From Lingula anatina (Eukaryota > Animalia > Brachiopoda), in NCBI GenBank assembly GCA_051362555.1, contig JBPQGU010000016.1:124001-188000 (forward strand): a stretch of 64,000 bases of DNA, written 5' to 3'. The notes below the pieces were generated by a model. That model did not search any database, was not told where the DNA came from, and saw only the letters and a list, made by a program, of their open reading frames with translations. Of this stretch, positions 7,721 to 62,258 are shown one piece after another; the first letter of the stretch is position 1; each line of letters starts with the position of its first letter. A program made the position numbers and the translations under genes.

Positions 7721-8207
7721 ACTCACAAAGAACTGATGAAACACTGCCGCTGCAAAGCTAATAAAACGTTGCCATTTTCACGTCTCTTCTGTGCTACTGA
7801 GTAGGTCGCACCTGTTGACAATGTAAACTTCCTGCTTCGATGAGGGGTTGTCTTGGCACATGATACGAAACTATAATTAAAATATCCCCGAACCAGGCAA
7901 CCCTAGGCCCAGCGGTGTATCCCAACCAAGATGATAAACTTTTCCAGTTCAAAAAGTTTTTATTGAATTCATGTATTTGAATACAACGAAAAAATAGGAG
8001 TTTTGAACGTCTTTTTATAAAACCTCATTGCTAACATCATAACTAACGTTTTGACGTGTGCCGTGAAAAAAAAATTCCCAACTTTCGTTTTGAACAATAG
8101 AATTACTTCCGCAAAGACAAATACCGGTGCACTCAGTGTGTCTTCAATTTACTAAATTTTGCAACCAAAGGAGACTTATTTTATAACAGATTTGACTCGA
8201 GGTAAGC
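7721..8207. promoter_or_regulatory. Putative bidirectional promoter with non-coding first exons of both genes
   Basis: Local CpG enrichment. - strand donor GTGAGT at 7726-7721; + strand donor GAG|GTAAGC at 8202. CRE-like TGACGT 8052-8057, kB-like GGGAATTTTT on - strand about 8070-8079, IRF-E-like ACTTTCGTTTT 8081-8091, ETS-like ACTTCC near 7827 and 8105. Confidence 0.55.
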
Positions 8208-8981: not shown

Positions 8982-9243
8982 ATGGGAATCTCAGTTGAGG
9001 CATGGAGGCTGAGAATAGGTTGTTTTACACACTCTTCCTCGGCCAGCAGTGAAGATGACCCTCACAGAAACAGCCACCGGAAACGAAAGTGTAGAACCAC
9101 AAATCATGATTGTGTAGCCAAGGTCTTGCCTGTTGAACAAAATGAGGAGTTGCCCAGTGCCCTAGGGGCTAAAAGATTGAAAACAGCCTCTCCTAGAAAA
9201 TCCTTTGCACAGCAGTTATGCGCTTATATTCCAAATCTCAGAG
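8982..9243 (+). CDS. First coding exon of the HELZ2-like gene (leader MGISVEAWRLRIGCF..., basic clusters HRKRKCR and AKRLK)
   Basis: Acceptor ttacag at 8944, ATG at 8982, donor AG|GTAATG at 9244 (phase 1), which matches the phase-1 acceptor of the 2A exon. Confidence 0.7.
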
Positions 9244-18200: not shown

Positions 18201-21200
18201 GCTAAATTCAGAGCTATAAAATTACTTGCCTAATTGATTTTCAAGTGCCCATTAAATAAGATTACATAAAACACACGTTGAGATTTCCCATTCAAGTCCT
18301 ATAGGTTAAGCTCTCTTAACTGTGTCACATAATTAGGAATTGGTGATAATTATGCAGGTAAATGTTGTTTAATATTGCAAATAAGTTTACAAAAGAAAAA
18401 AAATTGTGTAATGCCAACATTAATGCTATAGATGAATAACAGTGCCTTATTATCCTCAAACACATTGGGATTATTCATATCATGTTAATACAGCAAGATT
18501 AAAAGTTTGAATAGCAGCTTTATTGGATTTTTTTTTTTTTTTTGTGTTTTCTTTTTAATTTTTTTCTAAACACTGGCATTTTCAACTCCCATCCACCTGA
18601 AGCTCTTCAGATTTTCTGTATTTCCACATAAGCAGTTGCATAGGTTTTTATGTCTTTAAACATTATTTATTATTTTATGCACTGTCAACATTTTTCAAAT
18701 ATTGGGATTTTCATTATGTGAATTTGAACTCTCATGGTCCAGAAACTATAATCTTATTGCGGGGTGGATTGAGGCCGTCTTCTGGGTCTTTCAGATGCCG
18801 GTCAGATTTTAAAGTTTACATTGACTGGTATCAATTTTTTTCTGTTGGAAGACCATCAAAAGTGTAGGATGGATCAACAAAGATACTTTGGAATACTGTC
18901 AGAAAATATCTCTGGATCTGCTCCTGTTATTGACCATGTTACCTGTTGTGCATGATTAAAAATCAGTGTTAACTGACTGTGTTATTATAAGCATTATTTA
19001 TTATTGCATCAAAATAGAGTGTTTTCCACGAAATCGGGTGCATGCGCAGTTTGCGCCATTTTGTGCGGGACTGTTTCTCAGGGGGCTAGAGTAGAAGGGG
19101 CCTTCATCATGGACGGCTGTCACGATGTAAAGTAGATCTCCCACTCTTTGCATTTATCGGTAATGGGTAGTCATGACAACTGCTGTATGTATAACTGCAG
19201 CCACCGTAGAGGTAGCAAAGACAATGTTTGTAGTTTTTTAGTATTTCCAAAGGATAGACGTTCGACATTGCTATGGATTAGTGCTGCTGGTCGTGCGAAC
19301 ATTTCATTGAAAGATATAACTGTCAACTTCAAAGTCTGTGGCTGTCACTTCCAATCCGGTAAGCCAAACAGGAAAGATAGTATGTCTATTGATGCAGTAC
19401 CATCAGCTGATTTTCCAAAGTCACGCAATACGGCTAACAGTATTTCAAGTGCGACATGGGTCGAAGCGGCAGAGAGTAGGACTAGAAAAATTATATTGAA
19501 GAAGCTAATCACAGCAAATTTACTTTCTTTCATCGTTTTATTTAGAAAAGTAAAACTGCGTACAAAAATATTATCACAAAGATATATTTGATTTGTTCAC
19601 TTCTGAGCTGTTGCATGTCCAAGTTTGCAAATAAATTACTGTACTAGTAAATGCACTAGCATTGTGCCATCTTCCAATTAAAATTAATCTAAAAAAGCTG
19701 CACATTAACACCTGAGTAAAATAAAACCAACCTACACGGGAAATGTTAATTTAAAGCACCATCATCTGAGACGGAAGTTATAATTAAAAACATTACTATA
19801 TCACAATGTAGTTAAATATCCATTGCACTGCTAAATACATAAAATATATACAAATTGTACTTAAATCCTGCATCAACTGTTCAATAAAATAAAAATCTAG
19901 TCTAAAAAGGTGAAAGTTCACTCCTGAGAACCATTTCCATTCTACTGTATTCCGATAAAACCTATATAATAGCACCATCTAATACAACCATATTTTAAAA
20001 CCTTTGCTTTATCACAGTGTTTTTTAATATCTATATCCATGTTAAATACACAAAAGAAAAAATATTTCCAAAAAAAGAAAAAGGACTATTATCATGCAAG
20101 GATTATGATAACAGCATGAAAATAAAACGCTAAAGATTTTCACAACCAAAGATCACAATGCAGAATAATATTGCACATATTCTCAGTTTGGTATTAAATG
20201 CATGTATAGAATAAAGCTTGAATTTTTGAATGAAAAAAAAAATGAAAAAAAAAAGTTCAATAGAAGCGTACACCAACTTTGTCAAAATGAATGTCTTGTA
20301 AAAACTGGTCAGTTTAGGAACTACAGATGCCCAATGAACAGCATCAAACATAACAGATTCAATGAAGAGATCCTTCTCTGTGCACAAAACAAAATCATAC
20401 TCATGAATGTTATACACAGCCATTTGACCCTGGACTTGAGTGGAGTAGCTATGTTTCTGATTCAAATATGGCCTGTTGTTTTCGTCTAGCTTTAAACATG
20501 ACAGTTTTCTGGTGACACAGAGTGGTCTACTAAAGCTGTTGTGTAGATTTTCTGCACATATCCATCTTGAAAAAACCGTTAAGCTTTCAGACTTTTGAAT
20601 GCCCGCACAAATTTCTTATCGTATGTCCTATCCTTGCTGTCTATGAGATACGTTTTCAGTTCTTTCTTGGAAAAGTCATCAGGTACGTCTGTTAAATTTC
20701 TATTCCAAGTACTCGCATGAATGTGTTTTCTAAAAAATGCAGGTGTTATCATGTTACAAATCCTTGAAAATTCAGATCGAAACGAGCACTCGTCGATATG
20801 GCGTCCGTCATGTACACTCCACACTTGCCCCTTGAAACTCCAAATCCCGCAAAATCTTGTGTTCTCACGGAAAATTTAGCGGAAGTCACGTGACCGTGGA
20901 AAACACTGTATTGACAAAATGACCTATTTTGCATCTTTATTTTCTGTTTTTTGTCTGTACATTTGACAGCTTTGCTGCCTTGTTTGTTCTGTTTTTCACA
21001 TTATTAAAAAAATTTTGATGTTAAAGGGTACCTGTCAGCCGGCCTGAGACTGCTGTTGTTAATAGGACTACTGTTGCTAGTGGCAGGAGATGTGGAGGCC
21101 AATCCAGGACCCATTACAACACCTGGTTCTGAACAGGTTTGTGGGAATGTAAATTAGTAATTAAGCTGCATTCACAGCAGCTGACTAACTAGTCCGAAGA

Positions 21201-21834: not shown

Positions 21835-21885
<51 letters not shown>

Positions 21886-24800
21886 TCTTAGATGTAACCA
21901 TCTTAAAATTACTTTTGGTTCATTGATTGATGATATCAATATTTTAATAAAATGATTTCATATAAAAAATTGTATTTTTATTTATTTATTTTATTTATTT
22001 ATTTTTTCTTTGATTTAATGCTTTATATATCTAACATATTGTGGTAAAAATTGTTATTTGCAAGATTTTGATTTTCATTGATTTTCTTGTTTCTTATTTT
22101 TTGAGTTCATGTAATTTTTCTATAGTCTTATAGTAGAGTTATGATTTAAATTTTGTTAAAATGTGTTTTTAAAGATTTTTTTATTATTTTATTAATAAAG
22201 AACAATGGGAAAGATCCTGCCAAAGAAGAACTGTAAGTTAAAATGATTTTTACAATTTCTAACACCTCTGTTATTTCAATAATGTTTATACACAAATTTT
22301 TGTCTAAAAGTGTACATAAGGATAAGAATCCAGCTTGCTTTTTAAACAGAGTTTCCTTAGAAGTGCCTTGCAAAGATTCTAGGTTTCATATTTTGTAAAA
22401 CTCATTTTAAAATTAACATTTTCAGGCAAGCTCAGTCCATATCTTCAGAACAACTACAAGCTCATGACGAAGAAGTAAGTAGAGAATATCAGAAAAGACA
22501 TGGAAATTGGTATTTACTACTTTACCTTAAATCACATTTAGAACAGAAGACTAACAGATCTGTGGATCAAATATGGCCGACCCACTTGAATGCTTGTTGT
22601 GTTATCCCTGCAGGAAATCTGTTCAGTGTCTAATTGAGAATTAAGCGGTGAGCTTTGAATTGGGTCGCCATATTTGATCCATGGATCTGTTAGTGAGCTG
22701 TTCTGAATGGGCTCCTGTATGTACTGAGTAAAAACATACAGCCAACCAGCTCTTTGGGCTACTAGTGTTTTTCCAACCACTGTCCCACAGAACAAATGGT
22801 GGACATTAAAGAACACATTTTTAAGAAAAATGACCCCCCCCTCCCTTTAATTTTACTTGAGCCCATTTGTAGTCTGAGGTCTGAGGTCTTGGGTATTTTG
22901 TTCTTATAGATTTGATTTTTTTTCTTTGCAGATTGCCAAATATGAGGAGGAGGTTATGGTGTATTTGGAGCGTGGCAAAGAACCATTTAAAAGAGGGGAA
23001 TTTGATGTTGCTGCAGAGCATCTAAGCAGAGCACTGGAATATGTGGAGAAATTCCACCTGCAGAAAGGCACTTGTATCACCCCCCATCAACTGCTGGTTG
23101 ATGTTTATTTCAATCGCTGTTTTTGTTATCAGATGATGGTATGTTTCTGAGAGATTTTTATATTCATATATGTTTTTGGTCGTCTTTGAAATTGTCTGTA
23201 GTGTGTAATTGTGTCTGTCTGTCTAGATGTCTGTCTGTCTGCCTGTCTGTAATTATGCAATTTACATGCTTAATGCATGCCCACACTTGCATTTAAAGGT
23301 TTAATCAGTGGTTTGAAAAGATTATTTAAAATATTTTTTTTATTCACCCAAGTCTATTGAACCATCTGTTTTGTGGCTATTGCAATAAAATGATTTTGAT
23401 ACCAATTGCATTTCTTTTTTATCTTCCAGGGTGAGGGCCATTATCTAATGGCATTGAAAGACCTGCACAAAGGTAAATTTGTTAATTTTTTCAAAATTTC
23501 TCTCTCCATTGGTTGCACATGGGGGAATTGATATAAATTTGGAACAGTTTGTTGTCAACTTTCAAATAAATAGAATTGATAGGTATATTTTTTCATGGAA
23601 GCAGCAAATATTGTTCTTGTCTTGGCTGTCACTTACATTAACTACAATAAAAACTTGAACATTTCTAAAGTTGGTCTTGAAAATTTTGTTGAAAGACATT
23701 TCTCAAAGTTTTTCACTTTGAAAATACAGTAAAACTTGAAAATAGGCCTCTCGATTCTTTTGAATAGTTCATCACCTAATAAAGCCATGTCAGATTAATG
23801 CATTCAAAATATTAATTAATATTTAAATGACGAAATTTTGAAGTTTTTACTGCAATGGGCCGACCTGGCTGAATTGTCGGTTAAACCACAGGGTGTAAAA
23901 TATTTAACTGAATCAATTCTTTCATGTGACATGATTTTTTAGGTTTCTTTTGAAATTTTATGGAAACAAAATATAGTTCAACACTGTTTTAAACGGCTTT
24001 GGAGGAACAGTGGATTGCAAGAGGCCTGATATATGTTTGCGTAAAGGTCTACAGGATCAAATTTGTATATTGTAAATTTTTACTGCAGCATGAAACCCAG
24101 GATCAGTACCAATAAATATACTATATGATTTAATTGATTTAATATTTATTGATAATGAATGATCATTTCAAAGTAATTAAAGTATAAATAAGTCAGGAAG
24201 ATATGAAATCAAGAGGGTAGCATATAATAGATAAATCATAATCATCTGACTTCTACATCTATATGCTTGACAAGAGCATTACATTAAGCCAGTATGTTTT
24301 TTTTCAGCCATTGTGTACTGCAGTGAAATTACTATGATAATTGATGAATTCCGTGTTCGAGGGGATATACTATTAAGCATGATCAACAGACAAATTAGGG
24401 TTGACAATGACAGAAATCAGGTATAGTGTACCTTAACTTTTTCAGATGCATAAATTTAGAATTAAAATTTGCAGACTAGCTGTTTGCATTATTTGTGGTA
24501 CTTCTTCTTTATAGAATAGAAGTATTAATAGGTAGCCTGCTTTTCAGTTTTGTTGCTACCACTCCATAGGAATGTCCTTGATTCTGAGGTCTTACAATAG
24601 TGTTAAAATGCAATCAAAGTTATGATATTTAATTGTCTATGATAGAAACCAGAAATAAATGCTTACAAAATATATGCCTTTTTGTGTGTGTAGGTGGAGG
24701 AAGCAAAAAGAGTTATCGATGTCATGAAAAAAGATGGCATCATTGGGTTCAACAAACAAGAATACATGAAAGCCTTAGCAATATATGGTAATACATGCAA

Positions 24801-27800
24801 ACTGGCTAACCTCTTGCGTAACTGGAGAGATAAAGATGCAGACGTGATTCTGGCCGATGTGCAAGTGAGGTTTGCAGAAGCATTGTTCACGTGGGTGAGT
24901 ATTCAGAAAATTGGTAACTGTATAGGTGAAACCATTTAACCATCTCAATTAAAAGTTTTGACCTACAGAAAGAAAGGCAGAAACCAGCATTTGAAACGTG
25001 CTCCAAAGCTTAAGAATGTACTGTCATAGACTGTAAAGATGATAAAAACTCACTCTTTTGAAATCCACTCAAATACTGACATTAAAATTAAATTTTCAAG
25101 TCTTTTATAGACCAGTTGTTTTTAAATGGTTGCTTTACATCTTAATCAGTTGATAAATTTTATTGTTCTTTCTATGTGGAATGCCCTAAATGGCTTTAAA
25201 TGAGGCTATTGGCATTCCCTGGCATCATGTCAGACTAAAAATGGAGCTAGAGTAAGGTGGAGTAAAATGTTTTAGTGATAAAGGTGAAAGCTATATGTGC
25301 CACAAATGGGGCATCATAAAACAATACAAAAGGATATAAAACCAGTACCATTCACTGTTAAAATTGATAGCTTTAATTGTTATATTTTTCATTTCAGATC
25401 ACTGTTTTTAAGCTTGATCTTCAGCGTATGGTGTCACTGAAATGCCAGGAATGTAAGGACGTTATGTTTTCAATTAAATGACTTTCTTATACATTGACAT
25501 ATTTTTATTTACGATAAAAAAGTGTTACCTCCCTATCCCATTTCTAATAATTCCTTAAGTCTTGTCACATCAAGTCCTACTTCTTAGTGATACAGCTGTA
25601 CTGGTGAGTTTTAATAGGTAGGAACATGAAATTAATATACTGCAGGGGATTCCCTTTCAAATCTTCTGTACAATTTTTATGGATATTCATTTATTGGCCA
25701 TATTGAATGTGATTACTCCATTTTTAAAAACAAATTTTATGTAAAAGTCGAGATAATAAATATCTCTTATCTGTCTTATCTAGGATCTTCATGCCAAAAT
25801 CCACATAATTTTGAATAAAGTGCAGTTTTCTTTTTCTCACGAACCAGTTCTGGACCCATCCCTGCACATTGATGGGATGTTTTATACCATTTATAATTAG
25901 AAAATTAAGTTCTGAATTACTGGGCAGTCATTTTGAATAGCATCTGCCTTTCTAACGTTCACATTAAACATACAGTACTGCACAGAATCAGGAATTGCTT
26001 CCTTTTCACTTCATGACACAAGAAAACTGTGGTATATGAATGGAAGCTTTCTGTTGTGCATGATCTATATGCTTACTATGAAAGTGAATTTTCATGGTTT
26101 CTTGATAGGATGATAAAACAATAATTAATATTCTTTACTTGGGGACTATTTAGTAAATAACATGACTGTTTAAAAGATAACATTTCGGTCCATCAGCTAT
26201 GAATCTTGGTCATGTGCACATTTTCAAGGTCTAACTGGGGAAGGATCAGCTTTGTAGGGCAATTAAAATATGACTTTGGGACATTTTCATACATGGGTAG
26301 GATGCCTTTAAGTAAGTTCCCAGTATCTCATAACAGACTGGAACAGCTAGTTCACTAAGATGTCATGCTCAGTGTGACAAGTCCTTCAGGTTAACAAGTT
26401 TTGCTACTTTATGTAGACTGACTTTATTCATCAACAGTATGCTTGAACTGAAATTTGAGAGGCAAGATGTGTCGATGTCCAGTTCTTAGAATTTTAAATG
26501 TTTTCAGGCCTAGACCTGACAGAAGATGTGAATCAGTCAGAATTGGTCAACAAAATAAGGATGAAAGCCCATTTCTACAGGGCACAATGCTTTTGCAAGT
26601 CTAAGATGTTTAAAGAAGCCAAAGAAGCTATAGATACAGCTTTGCAGCTAGCCAAAGAAGTCAGTGATTTAGAAAATTTAAAGGTAAAAATGCATGGCCT
26701 AGCAACCCTTAAAGAATATCAGGCCTGCTGCAAATTTGCAATAAAATGTTCTTGTAAACTCCTGCAAACTTGTTGCTGCAAACTTTTCAGTGGTACACAG
26801 CATGAGGTTTTCCACTAAAAATTTCTTCTTAATAACAAATTTTTGTATGGTAATCAATATTTTTATTAAAATAACCACATTAGATCCCCTTTTCTTGACT
26901 ACATGCAGGAAAAACAAAATGTCTTGAACCCATGCTTATGTGATGGTTTTTCAAAATCCACCAGCCATTTGGGCTCGGTTTTTGCTAGAGACCATGATTT
27001 AAAACTGTCAGTTTGGTTGATGGGAGGTAAAATTTGACAGGATGGGGTAATTTTGATTTTTTTGTGACATTAAAATCTCTGTCATTATCTGTTAAATATT
27101 ATCAAAAAGTTTTTAATGTCCTTGAAGTACATTAAAAAATCTTCCTCTTTGACAATTTAAAACTGTTACCTTTTGCATTTGATGAACTAGTCAGATTTTT
27201 ATGTAAAGCTTAGTAGTTTATTATTTTCTTTCTTAATGCAATGTTGCATTTTATATAATATGGATATAGAGTAAAATATTCATTAATGGCCGTTGCATGT
27301 TTTACAGTAAATGATGGGTGATCCTCCATAACTTGAAGAGATCTTTTAATTCAAATACTTCTTAACATCCAGGAAATGGATATCTTTGAACTGAGAAAAC
27401 TCTGCACTCAAGAAATTGAAGCCATTAGCAACTCGCAGACTGCAGTGAATGAGGAATGGTTGGCTGGCACAAACATTGTGGAGGGGATCAGGGTAAGTCA
27501 TCATACTTTGGTAGTTTCTCTACTTTTTATGATCACACACTGTTTTCTGTCTGTACATTTGACAGCTATGCTGCCTTGTTATTTCGAAATGAACAGTTTG
27601 ACAATTAAATATGTATTAATATGTTAATAGATAAAAGACCTTTGTTTAGAATTAAAGGAATATAATAGCTTTTTGACAATTTGAAGTTTTTAGTTAAATT
27701 TTGCACAAAGTCAGTTGTTGGTAAATTTTGGATAATTTTGTCAACATTGCATGATTTAGATGATTAATACAAGCTGTGTTTGAAGTTACTGTTTTAGATG

Positions 27801-30800
27801 TGATGTTTTATCCTTTTTCCTTGTTTTTTAAGTCAAAGAGGCACCAAGAAAAAATACTTAAGCATCACCAAGGTAAGATATAAGTATTGCAAAGGTATCA
27901 TTGGTGTAGAAAATTGAGTCAGTTTTCAAAACGTAATGACAGAAGATAAAACAAAGATTGCAGATTACATGTAAATGCAAGGAATTTTTGAAAAGACCCA
28001 GCTTTAGGGTTCTGGTTGTGGGCGACATTTTAAAAATCCTAGCCTTCTGTTTGATATTCCCTAAAATAGAAAACTACACTGCTAGTCAGCCCATGATACT
28101 AACCCCATGGCAATTACTAGTTAAATCGTAACCTGTCCTGTAAAGTTTTGTCAGTTTGTTCAGTTATGTACTGATGACTATTTTTCTTCTTAGTACTTAT
28201 CTTCTTGTATATTTTTCGGTGACATATCTGATGGTTTACAGTCCTTTTTTTTAGTGTAAGTGCATTTTTTCTGTTTTGTACTTGTAGAATCGAAGACCCT
28301 AAAAGTAAAGAAGATCAAGTACAAGCAAGTACCCAGAAAGCCAGAAGCAGGGAGACAAGTATGGACCAGAACAATGTCTTTTCACTTATCTTTAAATATA
28401 TGTCCATTTAGGATAAGCATATACTTACCTTCGTCTAAAATTCCTTATTTACTGCCTTACATGCATTCTTTTTGGTGATAAATAAATCTTCACTATTCAG
28501 TGACTAAATTAATTAACATTTACACATATGTCATTTTACAGATGACATCATAATTGCAATTTTGGGGTAAAAATCGAAATATCGGTTACTCAAATTTTTC
28601 TTTTACCTGAGCACCCACGATCACTGTTTTAACACCAATTTAATGACACTTTTAATGCTCCAAAACCCTGCCAGCGAATTTTTCTTGGAAGTCGTAGTTC
28701 AGATTTTATCGTTGATTTAGCAAAATAATGCCTTTTTTAAAAAAGATCTATAATTAAGGGCTCATAACTCCATAACAAAAACATTTAAACCAAAAAGCTG
28801 CACAGGATTGTAGCTGATACACTAGTTAACTGTCTATCTGACTGATAAATAGAAAGATACTGTCACCAAGAAAATGGTGGGGAGTTCAAATTCTCATAGA
28901 GTATTTTTTTTCTGGCTCAGCAACTGAAAACAGCATCTGCACCTGCACCAGTGAAAGCAAAAGAAGGCAATTTACCTCAGAGAACTGATGAAACGAAGAT
29001 GATCAGCAAATTGGATAAGCTCACAGATACATCTATTCCTGATGATAGAAAGAAGAGCGATGCACCATTAGAGTACAAACTGACCACGAGAGGAAGTGGT
29101 GTGTATTCTCAGGATATTATTTGAGTTTTTTACATTCTGTTATTGTACCACCAGCGTAGGGGCTGGCGGTACACATGGTTTTACACCCCATTCCCATAGA
29201 TTTTTAGATTGTTCTATCCCTGTGGAGTCTCACTAGATTACTGTCAGCTTGGCCGGCTTAAGCGTCTGTCCCGCCTACTAAAAGCTGTAAGGGGGTAATT
29301 AACTATGGTGCTCGCTCATCTGTCTGCAATTTAGCGTGAACCCCCAGGGAGTTGGGTCGATCTAAATTTTAATCCCTGGATCGATTTAAATCTCTGGAAA
29401 TACACCCTTAGTCCTTAGGAATTATGGGAAAAATTTCTACAGACGGCTGACTGAAAGTCATATTTGGAGATTTTAAATATGCCCTTAAATTTGACCTTTG
29501 ACCTTTATTTCAAGGTCAAACGGGCCAAAATTTTCAAAAAAATGAAATTTTTTACGAAAAAAATTATTTCCGCTGATATTCAGAAACTACACAGACCTAA
29601 CCAATAGTGTTATTGGAAAGTGTTACCCTTAGGGTCATCTTTCATCTCCGTGAATTTGGGGTCAATCGGTGCATTTTCACGGGAGTAGCGGCCATAAGAT
29701 ATCGAAACTGAAAACTGTCTCTAATTCAGGAACCGTTAATGCAAGAGACCCATTCTTTTTTTGCATTTTGTAGAGCATGTAAAGCCCAACACTCGGGGTG
29801 GTCTCTGTTTTTTTGTATCCCATATGGTTTTCGAGTTATGCTGTATCAAAAAGTACATTATGGTGGTGAAAGCAAAATGTGCAGTATGGTAATGTATAAT
29901 AAATTTTGAACACCGGGAAAATAAAACATAAGGATTGGCAAGGCAGACAACTTCTGGTCTAAAATGACATTATTTCATGAAATTTGAGCATCTGGAACTT
30001 CTGAGCACCTCCCATTTAAAGAATTTCAACCAAAATGACCTTTTCTTTATTTTAATTAAAAGGACACAAAAGAGGATTTTCGCGCCAAAATTGATTTATC
30101 CTGATTTATCCCAAGGTTAACACTACTTTTCCGCGATTAACCAACCTTTAATCTATCATTCCCGGCACTCGCCATCGCTCTGTAACATTTTTGGAAAATA
30201 CAATAAAAAGAAAACCTCCGCTTAAGCGGAGGTTTACCAACAACCACCTCCATTTTCATAATTGAGCTCTCTAGACTTCCGGATCTCGCGAGATTCTCGT
30301 ATTGCGACCTAGTTAAAACCAGTTCAAGCTGCCGGGAAAGGACAACGTGAAACAGGAGGCTCAGTTATGCTGGGAGTCCTTCGAAGAAGCGAAGACAGAT
30401 AACAAAAAGAAAAAAGAAACAACCTTTACAAAAAACATGCGTAAAACAGTGTATCAGCAAATGTACGACAGGCAAACAATAAACACCGGCGAGGAAGAAG
30501 GCAGATGAAAACCTGCTTGGGTGGCCATGGATACGAAGAATGGCCTGGCCGCGAAGTATTTTCTGGATTTGTGAGTACCATTTACAATAATCTTTGAGAT
30601 AAGACACCAGTGAAAATATTTATTAAGCACAGAGATTTATGTTTATTTACGTGTGTTCGTTGTATATCTTAACGATTGTCAGGCTCGTCTGTCAAAATAT
30701 GCCATGAAATTGTAACTAATATGAGTGGTATCGATGACAGAAATTGCAAGTGTTGCTCATATGTCGACTCTGACAGGGTTTGGGTTAGTTTATAGAGCAA

Positions 30801-33800
30801 AGAAAGTTTAAATAAAAACGGACATGGTGGGAGATACTAGTCTCATTACATATACATTACAATGACCAGGGCGAATTTTTGACTTACCGAGGGCACATTT
30901 CTTGTGCCTCTAACATCTAGGCATACCACAGTAATTAAGACATATGACAAAGATGCTATTTCTTTAGGCATCTAAATCCCAAAATGAATGTGCAGAAGCT
31001 GTTATTGTATCTAAGTTTAACCCAATGTTAAATGGCATGTCAACTATAAGTGAAAATAAATAGTAGTATTTTGATTTTATATTTTAAAGACAATTTGTCT
31101 CCTTTTTACATTAAAAATAAATAAATCAGAAAGGGGATATTGCATGTTTATGTTTGGTACATCTCTCTAATGTATTAAATAGTCCAGAGTAATAATTTAG
31201 ATCATACAATTTTAACTTCCAACCAGTATTTCGGAGATTAAACCAATATGAAGTGATCAAGAAATTTCAAAATTAAGTTGTAGTTAATACTAGTGCAGTT
31301 GAAGATGACAGTCTAGATAATTTAAGGTGATCATATTGAGAAAAATGGCATTTATACTTATTTCAGTTGAGTTTTATACTTATTTCAGTTATGTTTTTAC
31401 ATAATTTTTCTCAAACTCGATTATCTTATTTTATGTACTGTTGCTTTTTTTTTTTTGGTTGCAGTATCAAGGTAACTTTTTCCTATGGTATGCCTGAACT
31501 GGAAGAAGTGCAGATGGAAGAGGAGGAAGATGCTGAAGAAGAGGGAATTAAAGGATCCTGATGATCCAACATGGGACTAAAACATGTCTTTAGAGTAAGC
31601 AGAATTTTAATAAGCTGATATTCACTCCTCATATATTAGGCATATAGGTGCATGATTTCTCTTTTATCAATTTTTTTTCCAAATTGGCGACACATAATGT
31701 AAACATAATGCAAGACTCTATTTCCTCCATCAACTGAAACGAGCTAAGCTTTACCAAAGTATTGTGCACTCAATTCTACAATATGCCTGCCCTGTGTGGC
31801 ATCCAGGACTAACTATAGAGCAATGCAAACTCTAAGAGACTGACCAAACTCGTGCTTTGAAGATTATTTTCCCTGACCTATACTATGATGAAACCCTGAA
31901 CCTGGCATATGTGTACTTTAGATAAACGAAGAGATCTGTGCAAAACTTTCTTTTACAAAATAACTGAATCCTCTGACAAACTGAATCACATCTTTATTGA
32001 CCAATCCAATCGTCTTTTAAGATCAAACAAAGTGCCACAATTTAAGACCGACAGATTCTGATGCTCTTTTATTCCGTATGCACTTTTAAATTTCCAATAG
32101 TATTATGTTGTCTTTTATCCTAAGTACAATAATTTTAAAGTTCAATTAGCAGTCTTTTAACTCAGTTTTATTCAAGCAAATATTCACTTTATTTTCATTA
32201 TAATTTTCTTAACACTATGTACAACTCAACCCACTGGGTTGCAATCTTAATAAATTATTATTATTATTATTTTGATTTGCTTTTTTAGACCTAAAGGTTA
32301 TGAGCAACTGCCAGTATGAAGTCCTGAAGAAGAGTTTTTTACATGGAAGAGGAACTCCATGGCTCTCCACCAAAAAAAGATGAACTTTTCGTGAGGGTCC
32401 AAAGCGGGGACGAGTTGGATAGTGAGAGACTTTTCCTGACTTTCGAGTGCTGCTTACAGGATATATTCAGTGAACTCATCTTGCCAATGTGACAAAGCAT
32501 AATCTGCTGACTTCAAACCATCTAGCACTTACATGTATGCTATAATGCAGACAGATTGGAAATCAAGGTGGTCTTTCCTCCCAAACCTAAGTCATATGCC
32601 TGATATTGAGAATAAACCATTTTGGTCCAGCATTTACTTCTTAAATGACATCAAATGTATTATGGAATATGGTACTGGTGGCATATTGTGATTTCAACTT
32701 GATTTTAAACCAGTGTGTTGTTAGATTTTGTAAGATCACCAGTTGCAGTTTTGTGACTTTGTTACAGCATAAAATTCTGTATTTGGCAAATGACTGCATG
32801 TCATTTCTTTTAAGACCTACAAAAATGGTTTGAGTGAACACTTGTGCCTGTATTCAATTCTCCACTCAGCCATTATTTAGAATTCATGCAGGGAAGCTAT
32901 GCCTGTATTTTTTAAAGAAATATTTTTACCTTTCTATTTATTCCCTGCACATCTTGGAAAAGTATGTGTGAATATCTTACTGATGAAACAATTTATGTTT
33001 GTGTAAGTTGGGTTGGTCCTTTCTTATGACACATCCCTTTGCATGGAGACAGCTCACATGAGTCAATACACTGACAGAGAGGGGGATAATTTGTTGATCT
33101 GCAATCCTCATGGGTCTGCATGTACATCAGACTCTTAACATGATAGCCTGGCTATTAATAAGTCTCTCTCAAAAATGTTATCATACTATAATGTGTACTG
33201 CACAATGTGAAAGTTTGTGAATGCTTGAATAGAAGGCTTATTTATGAAGATGGCATTAATGAGTATGAAAATAATTATGCATTCTAGCTTACAGAATCTG
33301 TGTATGTCTTATTCATTACATGTGACAGGTAATAATGAAGATGATTTGGCCAAATTCTAAACTTATGTAGCAAACTTTGTTTATTCTTGTATTTTTGCCA
33401 AATATAAATAAAAGATGTTTCAATATTTAAACTTTTATTTCATTCATAATCTCTACCCAGTTAATGCTTCATTGATACTGCAGCTTATGCTTTGTACATA
33501 ACAATATGTTAATTAATAATAACAGTTGGATAGTACATGTTAATTTACTAAAGGGCTAGTTCTTAGAAAAACATGTTCGACATTAAAATATATTCTAAAA
33601 AAGTTTTCAAGTATTGCATTAGAATTGAATCCTTGGATGTATTTGACAAATTATAAAATTATTGAAGAGTTGACAATGCACAGATAATAAAGGCCTTGAG
33701 GCTCTCGCTGATCTCAGTCTTGTCACTTTAAATACATGTACATGGGCATTATAATATAAAACTGTTCACTCGGTTTTGGTAAAAGGTGGTGGATCATGTG

Positions 33801-36800
33801 GTCATCGCTGCAAATTTTGCATCCGCGGACCCCCCCCCCCCCCCTTTCAAATAATCCCATGTTATACTGCTAAAATTATTAACATACCTGATCTCTTCAC
33901 TCTTGCTTGAAGGGGTGTATCAACCAATTCCTCCTCTGAAAGGCTAAAAAATCATTCCTTATAATCATATTCATTGACAATATTATTAAATTTACAAATA
34001 AGCTAACGTAGTTACGTGCCGTACAAAGAACACCCTCTAACCCCACTAGTACTCGAGTTACATCGTATATCTCATGGGATTCCCCTGCGAGAATATGGTG
34101 TGAGGTTAGTCTGTAAGTACTGGTAGATGACCACATTGAGCAGAAAAGGGTATTCCTCCTGCTTTACAGAACTATACACCTCAGGGGTAAAGTGCACTAT
34201 CTCGCTTTATGTAACTAGTAGTACGTACCCAGTGCGAGTGATTTGGCTGCGAGTGCGTTACCCGAGGAAACGTTAATTATTAGCAGTTATCTACGCTTTT
34301 TAACTTCCTCTGCCAGACATTTTGATTTCCACTGCCATCTTCCCATTTTAAAGTACTTTTGGTAAATATAACTCGCTTACCTGCAAAGATTCGGTGAGCA
34401 ATTCCTCTTCTCCTTCACGTCCACGCTCACCTTCGAAACGACATGCTGTCTGCATTGTTTACATCTCGTATCTGAGTCGAGAAGCCGCGTTATTTCAAAC
34501 TGTGTCAAGATGGCTGACGCCCGGGGTTCGAAAGTGGACGGTGAATATGATTCTTTTTTTCGATATTGATTAAGGCCATTTACCTGCCATTTTATACTTT
34601 ACCCATAGCAATTGTTCTCAGATAAGTTAAAAAAGAAGCAATCCATGCACTAAAAAGGCGTTTTTAATCCTATTTTTTGTCCCTTTAATTATTTCTGTAG
34701 GAAATTTATGGCACATTATTGTAACTCCAAAATCATAACATTTAGTCCCTTTTATCTTCAAAACTGGCAGAGATAGGTCCATAGTTATTATTGAAGTTGA
34801 ATAGGAAGTTATAATCTGGCAATCTAAATGTGACCTTGAAATTGACATTTGACCTACTTTTCATCATGAATTGAACTTTGCAAATTTTGGTTCCCTTTTG
34901 TCTCCAAAACTGGCAGAGATAGGTCCATAGTTGCTATTGAACTTGAATAGGAAGTCATATACTGGCAATCTAAATGTGACCTTGAAATTGACCTTTGACC
35001 TACTTATTATCATGAACTGAACTTTGTAAATTTTGGTTCCCTTTTATCTCCAAAACTGGCAGAGATAGGCCCATAGTTACTATTGAAGTTGAATAGGAAG
35101 TCATATACTGGCAATCTAAATGTGACCTTGAAATTGACCTTTGACCTACTTTACACCATAAACTGAACTTTGCAATTTTTTAATGCTTTTATTTTCAAAA
35201 CTGGCAGAGATACGCCCATAGTTACTATTGAATTTGAATAGAAAGTCAAAAAAGGCAATTTACTGTGACCTTAAAATTGACCTTTAACCTACTTTTAACT
35301 ATGAACTGAACTTTGCAAATTTTTAATGCTTTTATTTTCAAAACTGGCAGAGATACGCCCATAGTTACTATTGAATTAGAGTAGAAAGTCATTAGAGGCA
35401 ATTTACTGTGACCTTTAAATTGACCTTTGACCTACTTTTCACCATGAACTGATCTTTGCAAATTTCCGTTCCCCTCTATCTCCAAAACTGACAGAGATAG
35501 GTCCATAAATACTATTTGAACTAATTGAACTTGAATAGGAAGTAATACACTAGCAATCTGTGACCTTGAAATTGACCTTTGACCTACTTTTTATGATGAA
35601 CTGCTTTCTGCTTGTTATCTGGCCTTTAAATCTGCAAAATTGGCAAAGAAATGCCCATTGTTACTATTGAACTTGAATAGAAATTCATTTACTATGATAT
35701 TGAAATTGACCTTTGACCCACTTTTTCACAGTGAACTGAGCTTTGCATATTTTCTTGCCTCTCATATCTTTAAAACTAGCAGAGATGTGTCCATTGTTGC
35801 CCCTAGATTTTCTCTTTTGTCAGCATATATGCACCACTGACAACACATAGGCCTTTTGTCTAGAGAATACAGGAGTGATCAAGGGTAGGAAAATGCAAGT
35901 CAATTAGAAAATCTGCTTGATTGTACCATTTTTAGTTATATTTTTTTGCATATTTTGAGAACTCTTATTGATTGCATTTTATAGAGCTTGTCAAGCACAT
36001 TTAAGACTGGTGATGGTGTCCCTTTTTGGAGTGGGGGGGTCCATACAAATGTGCTTACTCCAGCTGGTGGTACAATATCCGGAGGCGGTATTGCCTCTCT
36101 GATCCTCTAGTTTTGTCTTGATAAAAGGGTCTATAATTTAAAAAGAACTCTCTGTATCTGAATTCTGTCCTAATAATTATTTGTTCCAGTTGTGTTGATC
36201 TTTTATTTATGTTTATTTTAGAAATTTCATCGAGAGACCCCGAACAGGTGGTTGGGATCAAAGCAAATTTTCCTTTACAAGATGTAAGGATACAACTGGC
36301 ATGCTCCTCTTGCTGTGTTGAATCTGAAAACAGTGGGGATGCTTACTGGTATGACTGGCAGGCTCATGAAAATTGCTATGAAGACCGTTTACTACTTCAG
36401 CGCAAGGGTGGGAAACTGTGGTTGTGGATCAAGGCTCCTTTATACAATACTTTTACTGACCTTTGCAAAGCTCATTTGCATGGGAGATTTTCGCCTTTTC
36501 CAGTTAAGAAATGCAAATATCCCCACAGCAAAGAGGAAAAGATTTTGTGGAAAAAGGATCAAAGGCAGGAGTTCAAGATTCTTAATTTTATTGATGAACT
36601 CCGGTATGCTTATCATCCCAAACCAAAAACTCCTCAAGAACTGATACAGAAATATGGAGGAAAATTAGTTTTTGTATGTCGCAAGTGCTTTTACATGAAA
36701 CCGACAGTTATCAGTTGGAAAGTAAAAGATAAAGATTGCTGTGAAAATGGGCATCGCTGGAAAGTTGAGGGTTTTTTACTTGTACATGAAAGTATTGTTG

Positions 36801-39800
36801 GTACAGGAAGAAACCGCATTCCAATAAGAGAAAGACCACGTGGTTATGCTGAAAGTGATATGTACCAAAGATGTGCCAAAGGAATTTGTACTGACGGAGA
36901 TTGCCCAAAGGCACATTTTGATATTGAAAGGGATGTATGGCATCTAGAAACAATCAATAACTGGACCAGAAAAGACTTCATACGAAATCTGAAGAAATTA
37001 AATTCTCATGACAAGAAAACCCCAACAATGAAAAATACACTTGGAACAGTCATAGAAAATACAGAAGTGTTGTCAGCAAGAATCCAACATTTGGACTCCA
37101 TATCATCTGCAAGTACATTTACACCAGCTAGTGAAGTCAAGTGTCAGGAGAAGGTGCAGTATGCTTGTCGTAAATGTTACATCAAAAACCAAAATCTCAT
37201 CGTTGGTCCATCAGTGGATTTTAGATTTTGTTATGAGCAGTTGCATCCATGGAACCCAGATACTTATTTGTGTGTTGTCCGTCTGGAAGATGGAAAATAT
37301 TGTGAAATAAGGGAATTGCCAGATGTTAAGAGGGACCAGTTTGACCTGTGTGTCAACATTAAAAGCTCTAATCGCTGCTTCAGGGGAAAGGAGTGTACCT
37401 ATGCTCACTCTACTATGGAGAAATTGCTGTGGGAATGGATGCAGAAAAATGGTGGTAAGGTTAACTTTAAAGAAGCATGCAAGTATATTGAAGGCATCTG
37501 AATTATTAAGTTATTTATCTTAAAAGGGAAATTTCATTTTTATGTACAGACACAGATGTGTCTGTACATATAGCCATCATCTGCGTCTGTCGTCGTCGCC
37601 GTCGGTGCCGTCGTCGCCGTCGTGCACTTTTACCGATAACACGATAAGTGGAAAACCGTTTTTGTTTTTGGCTTGAAACTTATAGAACTGATGAATATTC
37701 ATAATATGCAGGTCAAGTTCGAAAATCAGCATGATCGGGTCATTTTTAGGGAAGTTATGCTGTTTTTTCACTTTTTTCAGCATATATGCAGCACCGATAA
37801 CACGATAAGTGGAAAACCATTTTACTTTTTGGCTTGAAACTTACAAAACTGATGAATATTCATAATTCGCAGGTCAAGTTCGAAAATCAGCATGATTGGG
37901 TCATTTTTAGGGAAGTTACGCTGTTTTTTCACTTTTTTCAGCATATATGCAACACCGATAACACGATAAGTGGAAAACCCTTTTACCTTTTGGCTTGAAA
38001 CTTACAGCACTGATGAATATTCATAATACGCAGGTCAAGTTCGAAAATTAGCATGATCGGGTCATTTTTAGGGAAGTTATGCTGTTTTTTCACTTTTTTC
38101 AGCATATATGCAACACCGATAACACGATAAGTGAAATACCGTTTTACCTTTTGGCTTGAAACTTACAGAATTGATGAATATTCATAATACGCAGATCAAG
38201 TTCGAAAATCAGCATGATCTGGCCATTTTTAGGGAAGTTTTGCTGTTTTTTTCACTTTTTTCAACATATATGCAATACAGATAACTCGAAAAGTGAAGAA
38301 TCGTTTTACCTTTTGGCTTGTTGTGTGTACATTTGACAGCTTTGCTGCCTTGTTAAAATGGTTTTACTTCCAAACTGCCTCAAGGTAATGAATTAATGCA
38401 AGTGACCAGTGCCGCATCACATCATAGGTTACTGATTCCTATGTTCTCATCTATGTGCCCATTCAGAACAGAAGGTCTTCAGATCTACTGATCCGTGGAT
38501 CAAATATGGCAAACCCTACACGAAAGCAAGACTGCTTAATCCTGTAATGGTCTCCACCTTCACATGTCCGGTCCCTGCAGGGGCCTAGCAATTAAACCGA
38601 AGCTGAGATTTTATCCATTTAATGGTTTGTGTGGAGGCGGTGAGACCATCTTGCTTTCATGTAGGGTCTGCCATATTTGACTTGTGGATCAGTTGATTTG
38701 AGGATTATTTGTTTTGAATAGTCTCTTTGTGTGGTTGGGCTGAAGCATTTTCACAGGAGTAGCTGCCATTAGATGCTAAAACTTATAGTTTATTCTTATT
38801 TTGGCACTGTAAAAGTTAGCAACCTCTTGTTTGCTGAATATTGTTGAGCTTGGGAAGAGCAATACTGAAGGTGGTTTCTTCTTTTTTTTTTGTATCTGTA
38901 TGAATAAGGAGTTGAGTTATTAAAAATAATACTGTTTTTCCCCACACCTGACAAAACTTTTATGAAATTAAATGTGAACTAACTCCTAAATTGAAGGATA
39001 TATGTTTCATTTCAAATTTTCTAGTTTTTAAAGAAAAAATGCATGCCGAGTTGAATTTTACAAATTCTGTAAATTTCCATAAACATTTAAATTTTTTTTT
39101 TTAGTTCTCAGTCTGGAAGAATTGGTGATTGCATCTGAAAGATCTCAATCCAGTCCAGCACCAAAACAGGATGGAGATGATGTGACAGAGCACAGAATTC
39201 CTGGCACTAGATTCTGCTTCCCAAAGTTCTACTGCAAGTATTGCTACAAGGAGTGCAACAGTAAGATACAGTTGGAGAGACATTTCAGCTCACAGAAACA
39301 TAAGTCTGTGCTCTCCCAGCTGAACAGGAGCGATCAGCCGTGGAATTGCCGGGAACCACCACCTAATTTGATAGACTTTAAGCTTTGCAAAAGGTAAAAA
39401 AAATAAAAAATATATATATGTCCTCCATGTGGATTTTAGAAAGAAGAAAATAGTGAAGAATTGGTGACCCAACTAATGGTGTACAGGCAGGACACCATGC
39501 CTTCTGCACCACTAGATGGTGGTCACCACAGTGGTGTATGGCAGGCAGTGCACTGTGCCTTCTGCACCACTAGGTGATGGGCACCACAGTGGTGCATGGC
39601 AGGCAGGACACCGTGCCTTCTGCACCACTAGGTGGTGGGCACCACAGTGGCGCATGGCAGGCAGGACACCGTGCCTTCTGCACCACTAGGTGGTGGGCAC
39701 CACAGTGGCGCATGGCAGGCAGGACACCGTGCCTTCTGCACCACTAGGTGGTGGGCACCACAGTGGCGCATGGCAGGCAGGACACCGTGCCTTCTGCACC

Positions 39801-42800
39801 ACTAGGTGGTGGGCACCACAGTGGCGCATGGCAGGCAGGACACCATGTTATTTGCACCACTAGATGGTGGGCACCACAGTGGCACATGGCAGGCAGGACA
39901 CTATGTTATTTGTACCACTAGATGGTGGGCACCATAGTGGTGTATGACAGGCAGGGCACCATGCCTTCTGCACCACTAGATGGTGGGCACCATAGTGATG
40001 ACAATATGGCAGGCAGGATGCTGTGCACTGGGCACCACTAAATTGGAGTGATATTTTGAAGTACAGCAAGGAAGGCCTTAAAGTGACATTTTTGATTTTG
40101 GAAGGAGTAAGGGAATTAATTGAATTTTGAGATTACTTTTTAATAAGATTGTGAAAAATAAAATTGGTACAATTTCAGTTCTTTGATTTAGGCTTTTTTC
40201 CATAGAAATCCCCATACAGTGAATAGCAACTGTTATCTAATCATGAGAATATAAATTAAAAAGTAAGTGACTCTTATTCAAGGCATTGTGAAGATGGAGA
40301 AACCTGTTTGTACTCTGGGGTTGAGGACCATCTGAATCTCTGCCCGTTTGCACATTCTGAAGAGGAACTTGGTGAATGGAATCAGAGAGCCGCACAGAAA
40401 GATGCCTTGAGGAATCTTATGAAAGAGACCAAAGTTTATCCCTACCTCAACCAGGTTTATGAGGATTACTTAGCAGTGAAAGATACAGAAAAAGAAAAAA
40501 ATTTAGTAAGCAAAGCTGATTTTATATTTTCTTCAATACAACAGCTAAAAAAATAAAAATAAATAAAATAAATAAATAAAACCGAGTTATTTGCAGATCA
40601 CTGTCTACCAAAATACCTTCAGGGATTGAGACAACAGGTGTTATGATAGTTTCTGCCTGTAGTGAACTGTCAGCAACTCCCTCTACCATTATTGCAATTA
40701 CATTGCTTTGAAATGCATAAAGACCCATTATTTCATTAGAAAATGATATTTAGAAAACCAAAATATATACATAAGGTAAATTCAGGCTTTACCCCATGCC
40801 ATAAAACTTTACAAGATGCATCTTATTCATTTTGGTAATTTCTGTCTTGCATAATCCATTTTACACCTCATTGTGGTTACATTGTTTCTGATAATATTTT
40901 TAGATTGTGTATGATATGAAAGGTATTGACATCACACCAAATCCACAGACAGAAGATGGCAAGCAACTTCTTCACAAACAGTTTCAAGATAAGATAAAGA
41001 ATGATAAGGGTTACACATTTACTGTCAAAGTAGATACCAGCAAAGTGGTAAGAACTGTAATATTTAGAATCTGCATTTGTGGTATACTTGTGTTTGTATA
41101 CATTTTTAGTAATCTGTGGCACTTCATTTGTAATTGGTGTATTTATTTTCCCTATTTATTGCACCACCAGTGAGAGTGGAGGGGGGTACCATAATTTTAC
41201 CTCCTAACTACCAGCTATATGTAAAAAAAAACAGGAAAAAAGAAAAATTGCTTAGTAGTATCAAAATTTATCCATTTCTAGGATCTGACACTGGAGAGAG
41301 CTTCTCTTTTACTGTTCAAGCACAGAGATCACTTTGGTATAGAGACGGATGGAGGTGACACTGTGCAACTCATCGCTGGAGACTCAGTGTGCAGCAATGT
41401 GGATAACAATACATATGAACTCCGAGTGTTGTTTAAGACCTTCATCTTTGGAACCTTTGAGCAAATTTTGTTACTGGACTTTGGTCAGAGGCCTTTTCTT
41501 GGTGTTTCTTTAAAAGTTGATGTTGGTACTGAACAGGTGTTAAGGAAACTTTTTAAAGTAAGAAAGTTGAAGCAAATGCCAAGAGATCATGTTATTTCTG
41601 ATTACATCCCTTGTGCTAGTAATCCAACTCCTCTGCAGGAAGTTGTGGGAAAATATTTGGAAAACACTTGGGATTCTTCTTATAACTTAACATCACTTTT
41701 TGATAAGAAAGAGTTGAATCGTCATAACTATGTCGGTGTTATGCATCAGCTGCTGATAGAAGAACAAAAGGAGCAGGCTATCCTTGTACAGGGGTATGTA
41801 TGCCCCCATGAAATTAAGGTTTTCTAAAAATGAGTTACTAAGATAAAGAGCATTTTTATATCAAAATTTGGTAAATTTTATAGAAAGAAGTAATTTGTAT
41901 TTTGCACCTCATGTCTCTCTGGTTTTTGGTGCTGTTATATTGTTTATGATAGTAGTTGATCTAGATCTGCAAATTGAACAATGTCAAGTTAATGGTGGAA
42001 ACATAAGTTGATGCCCATTGTTACTAACATGAATGTCATTGATTTGAAAAAATCAGGATTACCCATTTATTTCTTGCAGTTGTAGAATAAAGGCAGGGAC
42101 CGAAGTCATGACACATCTCCCTCCTTCTCTCCACCACATCAGAACAGACAAACACCTCTTTGCTAAAATTACCATGGATGAAAACCTTCTTCAGTTTGGC
42201 AGGGAAACTGTGGAGCTGCTCCTCACTTCAGTTAGCCGAGGTTATATTCAGCTGGTTACGTCTCCAAGTTCAGAGTTTTATGAAGTAGAGGTGTTGAACT
42301 ACCAAGACTTTATAGACAGAGGTCGAACTAGAGACTCCATCTATCTTGCCTTGTCCGACCAGTGTTGCCAAGATCTGCCTTTGATCCCAGACACCTGTAC
42401 ATATTTGACAGTGCAGTTCAAGTTAGATGTGACAAATTTTCAGCTTATGCACTTAGCCCTGGAAAGACTTGATGCAAATCTTGATGTTTTCTTCCCTGAC
42501 TACACTCTTGATCAGCCAATGAGGGACTGCCTACCTGGGGAATTGAAAAAGTAAATATTCGTATACATATACCCCTACCCTGTCTAACGCAATACTTTTC
42601 AATCAATATCTTTCAGTTAAATGCACCAACATATACCTAGATATTATGATGTTTTGTTTGCATTTATTTTGGAAGAAAACTTGGGATCCATAGATTTCAA
42701 TTGTTTGCTAGTTTCTTCAATCTCCCTTTCTAACTCAATAGTTTTCAATCAATATCTTTCAGTTAAATGCATCAACATATACTTAGATATTATGATGAAT

Positions 42801-57677: not shown

Positions 57678-58089
57678 ACATTTTATTTTTTAATTGTAGT
57701 GGAAAATTAAAGTGAATTAATATATATGTTTAATTGAATAGAGAGATATAACTGCTGTGAGGTATCAGAATTTTTCTTCCTAACTAGTTACCAAGAGATT
57801 TGGATGTCCCTTGTAAACATAATTAAAACGAAATAGAGATAGAGATAATTGAATAATGTGTTTGAGCTTTTGATTTCCCCATACTCCTTTTCACTCCTAA
57901 TGCACTTGATATGTCTTTTTAGCAAACTTTCCTTGTATTGGACTCATACAAAAGAAAGGAACTGAAGAAACCCTACTGGTGACTTGATTTGATAATTTGC
58001 ATATCAGATATTTCTCAATATAGATAGAGAAAGAGATCCTACCTGCAGAAAAAGTAATTCATACTCAATTTTTATATGTATGCTTTTAG

Positions 58090-61000: not shown

Positions 61001-62258
61001 TGCTGGAGATCAAGACAGTGGTGTTACTGACCCTTATGCCATTACAACAATGGAAAACCCAGTGCCTTACAACCAGGCCCATGGGGGTAATCAGTTAGGT
61101 AGGTTGCCTACAGTAATGCAAGAGATTGTAGGACAAATCCCCTCTAGTACAGGCAGCACAAATATTACAGTCAATTATCAGGTTAACAAAATTTATAGCA
61201 CAGACAAGGAATCCATGCCACATATGAAAGAGGAAGATGTGACAAAATCATTCCGTAAGCATGTCCCTTCAGATGTGATAAAACAACTAAAGGAGACACT
61301 TACTCAAAGAGATGTATGGGACCAAGTGAAGAAGATGTATGGCATTTCAGATGAAATTTCATGCCCTCCGGATGTTATGGATTATTTGTTGTCTCAGGTT
61401 GAGGGTTGTATTGCATCTTTCAACAATGTGCTGTTAAGGTTAAAAGAAGCCCATGCAGAGGGAGAGCAGGACATTCCACAAGATTTGATTGATAAAGTCA
61501 AGGTAATTGAAAATTTGGTCAGATAAATAATGTCTTTTATATTTTAAAATGACAATATATGTTTTGATTTCAGTCATTTTTACGGTATATGCCACATTAG
61601 AACTATTGTCACTCTCTGCGGTATATTAATTTTACCCCTCAGCCAAGTTTTCCATCTCTTCATATTCCAAGTAAAAGAGAAAGAGATAGATTCTGAAGCA
61701 ATTGTATGAGAAAGTGAATTGGCTGTTTGGCATTTTTAAGTATTTTATCATCTGTTAGTTATTAGGCAACATCAAGGTTTGAAGGGTTATAAGTTGAAAA
61801 TATGCCTTATTGTATTTTTCTTCTAGGAGGGACTTAAGAGTGAAATGGAGTACAAGAAACTGAGAGAGAATATGATCGACTTTGCTGAGGACCTTATTAA
61901 TAATTTTGGACGAGTTTTAGATTACCTGTCTCAGTTTAATATAATGTCAAGTGAGGTGAAAGCAAAGCTTAAAAGCAATTTTAGGGAAAGTCCAGAAGAG
62001 GCCTGTAGAAATTTGTTTCAAGTACTCCTTGATATTAGTCCTAAAAAAGAACCAATTAAATGTCTGAGAGCTGCATTCAGAGATTCCACACTTGAGCATC
62101 TGGCAGATGAACTAGAAGTAAGCAGTCAGGATGTAGAGGGTGAGTTACAGGAACACGGAGGGGGAGGTGATCTTCCTTCTTGGCAGGAGCCATTGGCGAT
62201 GGGATTGGAAGCTCCCCCCACATTAGTCATGGGCCAAAGACCTATTGCAGCACATTAG
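58090..62258 (+). CDS. ZU5-UPA-(Q/N/G-rich)-death-domain-like-CARD protein; separate gene (ATG 58122, about 880 aa) or C-terminal extension of the HELZ2-like gene
   Basis: Phase-compatible exons 58090-58266, 58504-59189, 59666-59848, 60066-60254, 60495-61502, 61827-62258. ZU5 signature ITPEGGHVNLKEVGVFLLVPAGAL...SPVVVCGPHGLTFRKPVFLSFYHC; UPA-like start LKLKVYCVNDTPDE; CARD-like KKLRENMIDFAEDL..FGRVLDYLSQFNIMSSEVKAKL...ACRNLFQVL...CLRAAFRDSTLEHLADEL. Confidence 0.8.
59216..59503 (+). mobile_element. Degenerate short HINE family A relic
   Basis: ttttgtacagaca start and tgtctgtacacttgttaactttgctgtcttgtt end; similar relics near 27545-27580 and 43065-44240. Confidence 0.5.

Follow-up and report, generated by a model that had tools for sequence, protein, structure and literature searches.

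The HELZ2-like gene of Lingula anatina carries, in an exon of its own near the start of its coding sequence, a 2A (StopGo) peptide that belongs to class A by sequence criteria. In this study, the exon was located at 21027-21136 of the window, which is the whole stretch of 64,000 nucleotides that was analyzed, and its 110 nt are flanked by AG and GT (TTAAAG upstream and GTTTGT downstream). The phase-1 reading of the exon, GYLSAGLRLLLLIGLLLLVAGDVEANPGPITTPGSEQ, contains LLLVAG-DVEANPGP, in which the core DVEANPGP (21089-21112, residues 109-116) conforms to D(V/I)ExNPGP and the preceding LLLVAG, a hexapeptide of the LLLLSG kind, is a Leu-rich stretch ending in (A/S/C)G ahead of the Asp, as the motif is defined in the accessible part of PMC12846837. 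The skip is predicted between Gly115 (21107-21109) and Pro116 (21110-21112), and it would separate a leader of 115 residues from the 4,521 aa that follow. NPGP occurs only once across the six frames of the window, namely in this exon, and the number of chance D[VI]ExNPGP matches per window was estimated from base composition at about 2e-5. In-frame coding on both sides of the core was found in the predicted 39-exon open reading frame and in RefSeq models, and it agreed with the edges of RNA reads. These data confirmed that 21027-21136 is a real in-frame exon of the gene. The exon and its frame with 8982-9243 and the downstream exons, the canonical class A 2A with its 115-aa leader and Gly115/Pro116 junction, and the HELZ2-like nature of the host had all been claimed in a first-pass annotation of this DNA, and they were upheld by the AG/GT sites, the computed motif and frame, the RefSeq models and the full domain set.

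Joined to 8982-9243 and to 37 downstream exons, the 2A exon forms part of a single open frame of 39 exons and 4,636 aa (Table 1). The exon boundaries were chosen by a script, with database models guiding the first 34 exons, and the last five were placed by eye. The exon beginning at 22426 ends at 22474, and the sole GC donor of the chain, at 57669, belongs to a GC-AG intron and is consistent with the reading of the database model. RefSeq models begin at the Met of ATG 8982, and the leader exon probably opens at the acceptor 8945. With a matrix built from other sites of the same gene, the acceptor of the 2A exon ranked 19th of the 642 AG sites in 9300-22190 and its donor 21st of the 649 GT sites in that interval. 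When the exon was omitted from the computed chain, the frame shifted and ran into a stop behind residue 111; ribosomes that begin at ATG 8982 therefore have no in-frame way around the 2A. Moreover, the same chain of exons, with the 2A exon in frame and MGISVEAW as its first residues, recurs in four models: XP_013400663.2 (the RefSeq HELZ2 of L. anatina, which the large exon matches at 99% identity), XP_013414704.1 (LOC106176738) and two older ones. The 27-aa 2A stretch (residues 90-116) is identical in all Lingula models, with variation at residues 89 and 117, nor does it differ between three gene versions with TPR exons 83-97% similar to those of the window.

Table 1. Features of the HELZ2-like gene in the window.
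Feature	Position	Strand	Remarks
Candidate non-coding first exon	8120..8201 (start approximate)	+	strong donor GAG/GTAAGC; placed from the sequence only
Leader exon, coding part	8982..9243	+	ATG 8982; 87 aa with basic clusters
2A exon	21027..21136	+	residues 88-124; also present in RefSeq models
Nine small exons: linker and TPR-like repeats	22201..27492	+	start of the predicted Pro-initiated product
Linker and Cys/His-rich zinc-finger exons	27833..42550	+	region common to other HELZ2 proteins
UPF1-like helicase 1	44319..46167	+	GAFGTGKT, DEAGQ; runs on into the next exon
Large exon	46881..50838	+	OB_HELZ2 (~47648-47920) and RNB (~48392-49489) with FTIDPKDSEDLDDALS
UPF1-like helicase 2 and acidic linker	51063..58266	+	GPPGTGKS, DECGM
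ZU5, probable UPA, Gln-rich linker and CARD-like exons	58504..62258	+

Four of the nine listed same-species RNA runs were aligned to 20600-21500, with 6-30% of each being read. The 2A exon was covered at a depth of 1-3 in all four (about 8 reads in total), and every read over it was in plus-strand orientation (first mate on the minus strand). Bin means resolve into four reads starting at 21025 (nine bases each: two in run X1 and one apiece in X4 and X7), a start that corresponds to the AG shared with the end of an upstream exon, and into three reads of ten bases in X1 ending at 21136; the 5' bin of run X9 (34 base-counts) does not resolve into a clean edge. Since these edges are arithmetic on bin means and not displayed junctions, the splicing predicted by the first-pass annotation was matched at the ends of the exon, by read edges at 21025 and 21136, without the partner exon being named. 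In each run, hundreds to thousands of RNA reads fell on a short dispersed repeat at 20910-20990, and pieces resembling this repeat lie at about 27540, 2690 (minus strand) and 59470.

The encoded protein has two UPF1-like helicases around OB and RNB domains, zinc fingers toward the N-terminus, both sets of Walker motifs and an RNB domain (E 1e-66) that retains its catalytic aspartate motif, which is the arrangement expected of HELZ2. The 87 aa encoded by the leader exon matched no Pfam family. The TPR_2 matches (E 1.6e-5 to 4e-5) are below the Pfam cut-off, and residues 560-1180 were matched by 102 of 123 homologues at E values of at most 1. At the 3' end, ZU5 was recognized with an E value of 6e-19, and the CARD call is based on a weak Pfam hit (E 0.009, below the cut-off) together with an ESM Atlas value of 0.93; a single-sequence fold of this part gave no match at E values of at most 0.001, and nothing useful came from searching solved structures by sequence. 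The ZU5-CARD tail may be in frame with the helicase through the junction 58266^58504 (GT/AG sites), in which case HELZ2 would reach the 4,636 aa given above. The database model P0006 ends at 58361, ahead of this tail, and the tail had no match among 258 homologues. An antiviral role of the protein would follow by homology. The window is nearer to one RefSeq model in some exons and nearer to the other elsewhere. Exons 24694-26683 and 28921-29098 (TPR region and linker) share only 83-88% identity with each of the two RefSeq models, as against 95-100% for many other exons, a divergence that suggested rapid change or gene conversion between copies.

The peptide is already catalogued, yet it has gone unremarked as a HELZ2 feature. 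In the accessible rows of supplement 3 of Rao et al. 2025 (PMC12338488), LLLLVAGDVEANPGP stands at 102-118 in three entries (A4483, A6181 and A16699), the first of which is UPI00078A4D8E, that is, model P0006; the peptide is assigned there to class A with activity N/A, and five more Lingula rows cover two other peptides. Snell & Matreyek 2026 (PMC13405545) included the exact 20-mer in a pooled test (supplement 1 row 1696, supplement 3 row 1941) and classed it as 'skipping, reduced protein'. Its green score, the designed skip read-out, was 3.00, with low R and IR, where four skipping controls gave green scores of 2.54-2.68 and their non-skipping mutants 3.07-3.45; the three scores of P2A were 2.25/2.54/2.30. 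Lowered reporter output of the 20-mer in human cells is well supported by this screen; its skipping is only a classifier call, the green score being nearer to the non-skipping controls. The classifier had a training-set recall of 86%, calls a T2A variant non-skipping and spreads near-identical poly-Leu peptides over four classes, and individual confirmation is urged by the authors, who also state that native contexts were not verified. A Leu-rich peptide lacking the 2A core was classed as reduced too, so that the reduction may be an effect of hydrophobicity. The Lingula peptide does not appear in the protein-context file of the same study, and the accessible text of PMC3708506 describes canonical 2A motifs as often inactive. 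Compared by eye, the 60-nt oligo in print and the window disagree at two positions, both synonymous, which points weakly to constraint. The word 'helicase' is absent from both main texts (PMC12338488 and PMC13405545), and no literature link between 2A and HELZ2 was found among the papers listed by a search outside which lay most subscription papers and theses, nor did any paper there name both L. anatina and HELZ2. The supposition that no 2A-HELZ2 had been described thus stood as regards a linking paper and fell as regards the peptide, which is in two published tables. As the feature belongs to one lineage and the peptide was already catalogued, the finding extends a known pattern, in which an RNA helicase-nuclease now joins the 2A-bearing host classes.

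It is proposed, with somewhat better than even confidence, that StopGo frees the 115-residue leader and a Pro-initiated cytosolic helicase-RNase at reduced yield, and thereby acts as a built-in dose limit. The Leu-rich nascent helix and the core would make the ribosome stall while Gly115 occupies its P site, and the leader would be released, in line with the 2A mechanism described in the accessible parts of PMC12846837 and bioRxiv 2026.09.24.754024. Only some ribosomes would then restart, giving the Pro-initiated enzyme without the hydrophobic stretch, and the read-through product would keep that segment and would likely be mis-targeted and lost. The hydrophobic stretch of the 2A exon spans residues 90-108 (mean hydropathy 3.4 over residues 96-107), with basic residues before it and acidic residues after it. 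By the positive-inside rule, a segment of this basic-before, acidic-after type would place the enzyme in the lumen of the ER. The read-through enzyme would more likely be directed there, to an unproductive place for an RNase, which is why dose control was rated above dual targeting. Both productive skipping in Lingula and selection for a low dose are what we infer from these features. A dose limit would also be in keeping with the 73% of death-domain-protein 2As that fall in the reduction class of Snell & Matreyek (PMC13405545), given that the gene may end in ZU5 and CARD. Furthermore, according to the accessible part of PMC10516660, human HELZ2 is an interferon-induced RNase with a GUG start that gives about 20% of AUG output; by analogy, this GUG start may be a parallel throttle and suggests that a low yield could fit a HELZ2-type enzyme. 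A bolder version, which we put forward as speculation and hold to be rather doubtful, is that an obligatory StopGo gate caps, at the level of translation, a giant HELZ2-ZU5-CARD antiviral RNA sensor-nuclease that would be hazardous, convergently with the hominid GUG start, and that translational stress in the course of infection could tune the gate. The locus offers a clean test of a native 2A, with an obligatory exon, published reporter scores and a human counterpart RNase that has a weak start codon.

The 2A core or a one-residue variant of it was found in none of 258 other HELZ2-type proteins, which indicates that there is no deep conservation and that the 2A looks lineage-restricted. The 258 comprise 123 named homologues (the 120 best of 609 matches together with four others, one shared; 63 invertebrate) and 135 unnamed representatives taken from the best 150 matches, and many are fragments, 78 of 216 RNB-bearing proteins reaching at least 1,500 aa upstream of the RNB motif. 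The single NPGP among them sits in a polar, Pro-rich tract, and the leader had no match in the set. Among the named matches listed, no brachiopod or phoronid other than Lingula was present, and when residues 85-520 were searched against shorter proteins, nothing but the second Lingula model came up. A quick helicase 2 tree of 69 sequences, built without most of the vertebrates, placed the Lingula protein beside Owenia and mollusc sequences that all lack a 2A (support 0.84 and 0.92); helicase 2 identity to the best homologues is 40-47%. No subfamily with a 2A in orthologues of other animals was thus seen among the protein models searched, some of which may lack unannotated 5' exons. Two bivalve HELZ2-like models, of Dreissena and Mya (P0102 residues 10-21 and P0126 residues 25-36), have an N-terminal signal-anchor-like stretch without a 2A core, and in both the basic residues come after the hydrophobic anchor.

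Reverse transcriptase and endonuclease families were matched by none of the 93 intronic ORFs of at least 48 aa in 9400-22930, a survey that short decayed fragments could escape, and the 2A exon therefore does not lie within a recognizable LINE fragment. The first-pass annotation would have been abandoned by its authors had the motif been missing from orthologues and located in such a fragment; the motif is indeed missing from 258 of 258 homologues, but no LINE remnant surrounds the exon. N-terminal 2As occur in non-LTR elements of molluscs, echinoderms and amphioxus (Odon et al. 2013, PMC3708506, accessible in part), and a LINE source of the Lingula 2A is plausible on that account. APE-type non-LTR retrotransposons, in which the same motif class is found near the N-terminus (PMC3708506, same portion), would be the likeliest reservoir of such peptides, although no APE endonuclease or reverse transcriptase was found near the Lingula 2A or after it. 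The only clear family match among the 93 ORFs was THAP, inside an element at 19013-20912 with 18-nt terminal inverted repeats, which lies upstream of the 2A exon, stops 114 nt short of it and contains the THAP ORF on the plus strand (19136-19591) and a broken ORF on the minus strand (20130-20615). We take this element to resemble a Kolobok-type DNA transposon. A promoter directly 5' of the 2A exon was considered and dropped, as the motifs near 20880 fall inside the element. The introns 3' of the exon contain MITE-like inverted and direct repeats at 21190-21820 and 22530-22710.

Absence of the motif from every homologue, including the co-grouping Owenia and mollusc proteins, and a leader without Pfam family or homologue match would also suit a neutral history, in which a 2A piece, probably derived from a mobile element, was exonized with a new 5' leader and tolerated as skipping frees a near-normal enzyme, the loss of yield being an unselected side effect. 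The N-terminal 2As of many invertebrate non-LTR elements (PMC3708506, in its accessible text) make such a source conceivable; however, no reverse transcriptase or endonuclease remains among the intronic ORFs and the core is identical across three gene versions, and we regard this history as unlikely. A localisation switch, in which read-through gives a membrane-anchored or secretory product, skipping a cytosolic one, and both are functional, would account for the strong hydrophobicity of the 2A exon; it has a precedent in SpNLR2A6 of sea urchin (PMC4981915, accessible in part) and a parallel in the signal-anchor-like starts of the Dreissena and Mya models. Nevertheless, the hydrophobic stretch lies 90 residues from the start, its charges would send the enzyme to the lumen, away from cytosolic RNA, and the bivalve basic residues lie after the anchor, opposite to Lingula, so that a functional switch of this kind seems distinctly improbable. 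Of the localisation or dosage switch offered by the first-pass annotation, the dosage half is favoured by the reporter result for the 20-mer (PMC13405545), and the localisation half is disfavoured by what the charge pattern implies.

The screen of PMC13405545 can also be read as a stall or degron without productive restart, in which fall-off or quality-control decay caused by the Leu-rich stretch would leave little enzyme, made by read-through or from a downstream start: the green score comes close to that of non-skipping controls while R and IR are low, fall-off was the sole outcome for a poly-Leu peptide assayed individually, and core-less hydrophobic peptides were reduced too. Against this, the peptide stands in print in the skipping class, its core is perfect and follows an AG like that of viral class A 2As, and AGDVEANPGP is common to natural FMDV variants in the accessible part of Rao's table (PMC12338488), which leaves a pure stall with a slim chance. 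The splice partner is the remaining point. Were 21027 joined in the main mRNA to another exon, such as the one ending at 8201, the 115-aa leader would be minor or wrong and the 2A, if translated at all, would depend on a near-cognate start. The RNA reads do not name the partner, 8201 and 9243 both end in AG, and the X9 bin lacks a clean edge; however, the 8982 exon is part of the frame at two RefSeq loci and its donor at 9243 scores 8.4 bits, making a different main partner very hard to credit.

Leu-rich class A 2As near the N-terminus of invertebrate immune-type genes are known from the NLRs of the sea urchin Strongylocentrotus (Roulston et al. 2016, PMC4981915, accessible in part) and from death-domain proteins and ankyrin proteins (PMC13405545), and the Lingula 2A resembles both. 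In contrast to the sea urchin NLRs, the Lingula host is a helicase-RNB enzyme, and its 2A is internal, following 87 residues and occupying its own exon. In the accessible part of that report the 2A is a gene-family trait, present in 85 of 241 NLRs, which the Lingula 2A is not; 2As within the N-terminal region are mentioned there as well. With its core at residues 109-116 instead of in an extreme N-terminal 2A of about 26 aa, the Lingula peptide falls, on its sequence, outside the N-terminal signal type of 2A. Zinc fingers, helicase 1, OB, RNB and helicase 2 are common to the Lingula protein and human HELZ2 (PRIC285, an interferon-induced 3'-5' exoribonuclease in the accessible text of PMC10516660), whereas the leader, the 2A, the TPR-like repeats and possibly ZU5-CARD are extra in Lingula. 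Output would be limited by the proposed 2A in Lingula, in place of the GUG start described for the human enzyme in that text.

Upstream of the leader exon, 8070-8201 is a candidate promoter with non-coding first exon, and no ATG occurs within 8100-8201. Its sequence contains words that we take to be NF-kB-, IRF- and ETS-like. The IRF-like word (8081-8091) is at chance frequency (6 occurrences against 6.5 expected, with a pattern chosen after the site had been seen), and a first, stricter IRF-like pattern gave no match. One repeat family is represented at 5550-6580, 11383-11637, 16329-16604 and 37577-37840, with copies that end in GAC/GGC triplet runs, and a tandem array of units of about 160 nt near 5550-6520 belongs to the same family as the 11383-11637 repeat. 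A minus-strand gene with an exon at 798-2228 is possibly arranged head to head with the HELZ2-like gene.
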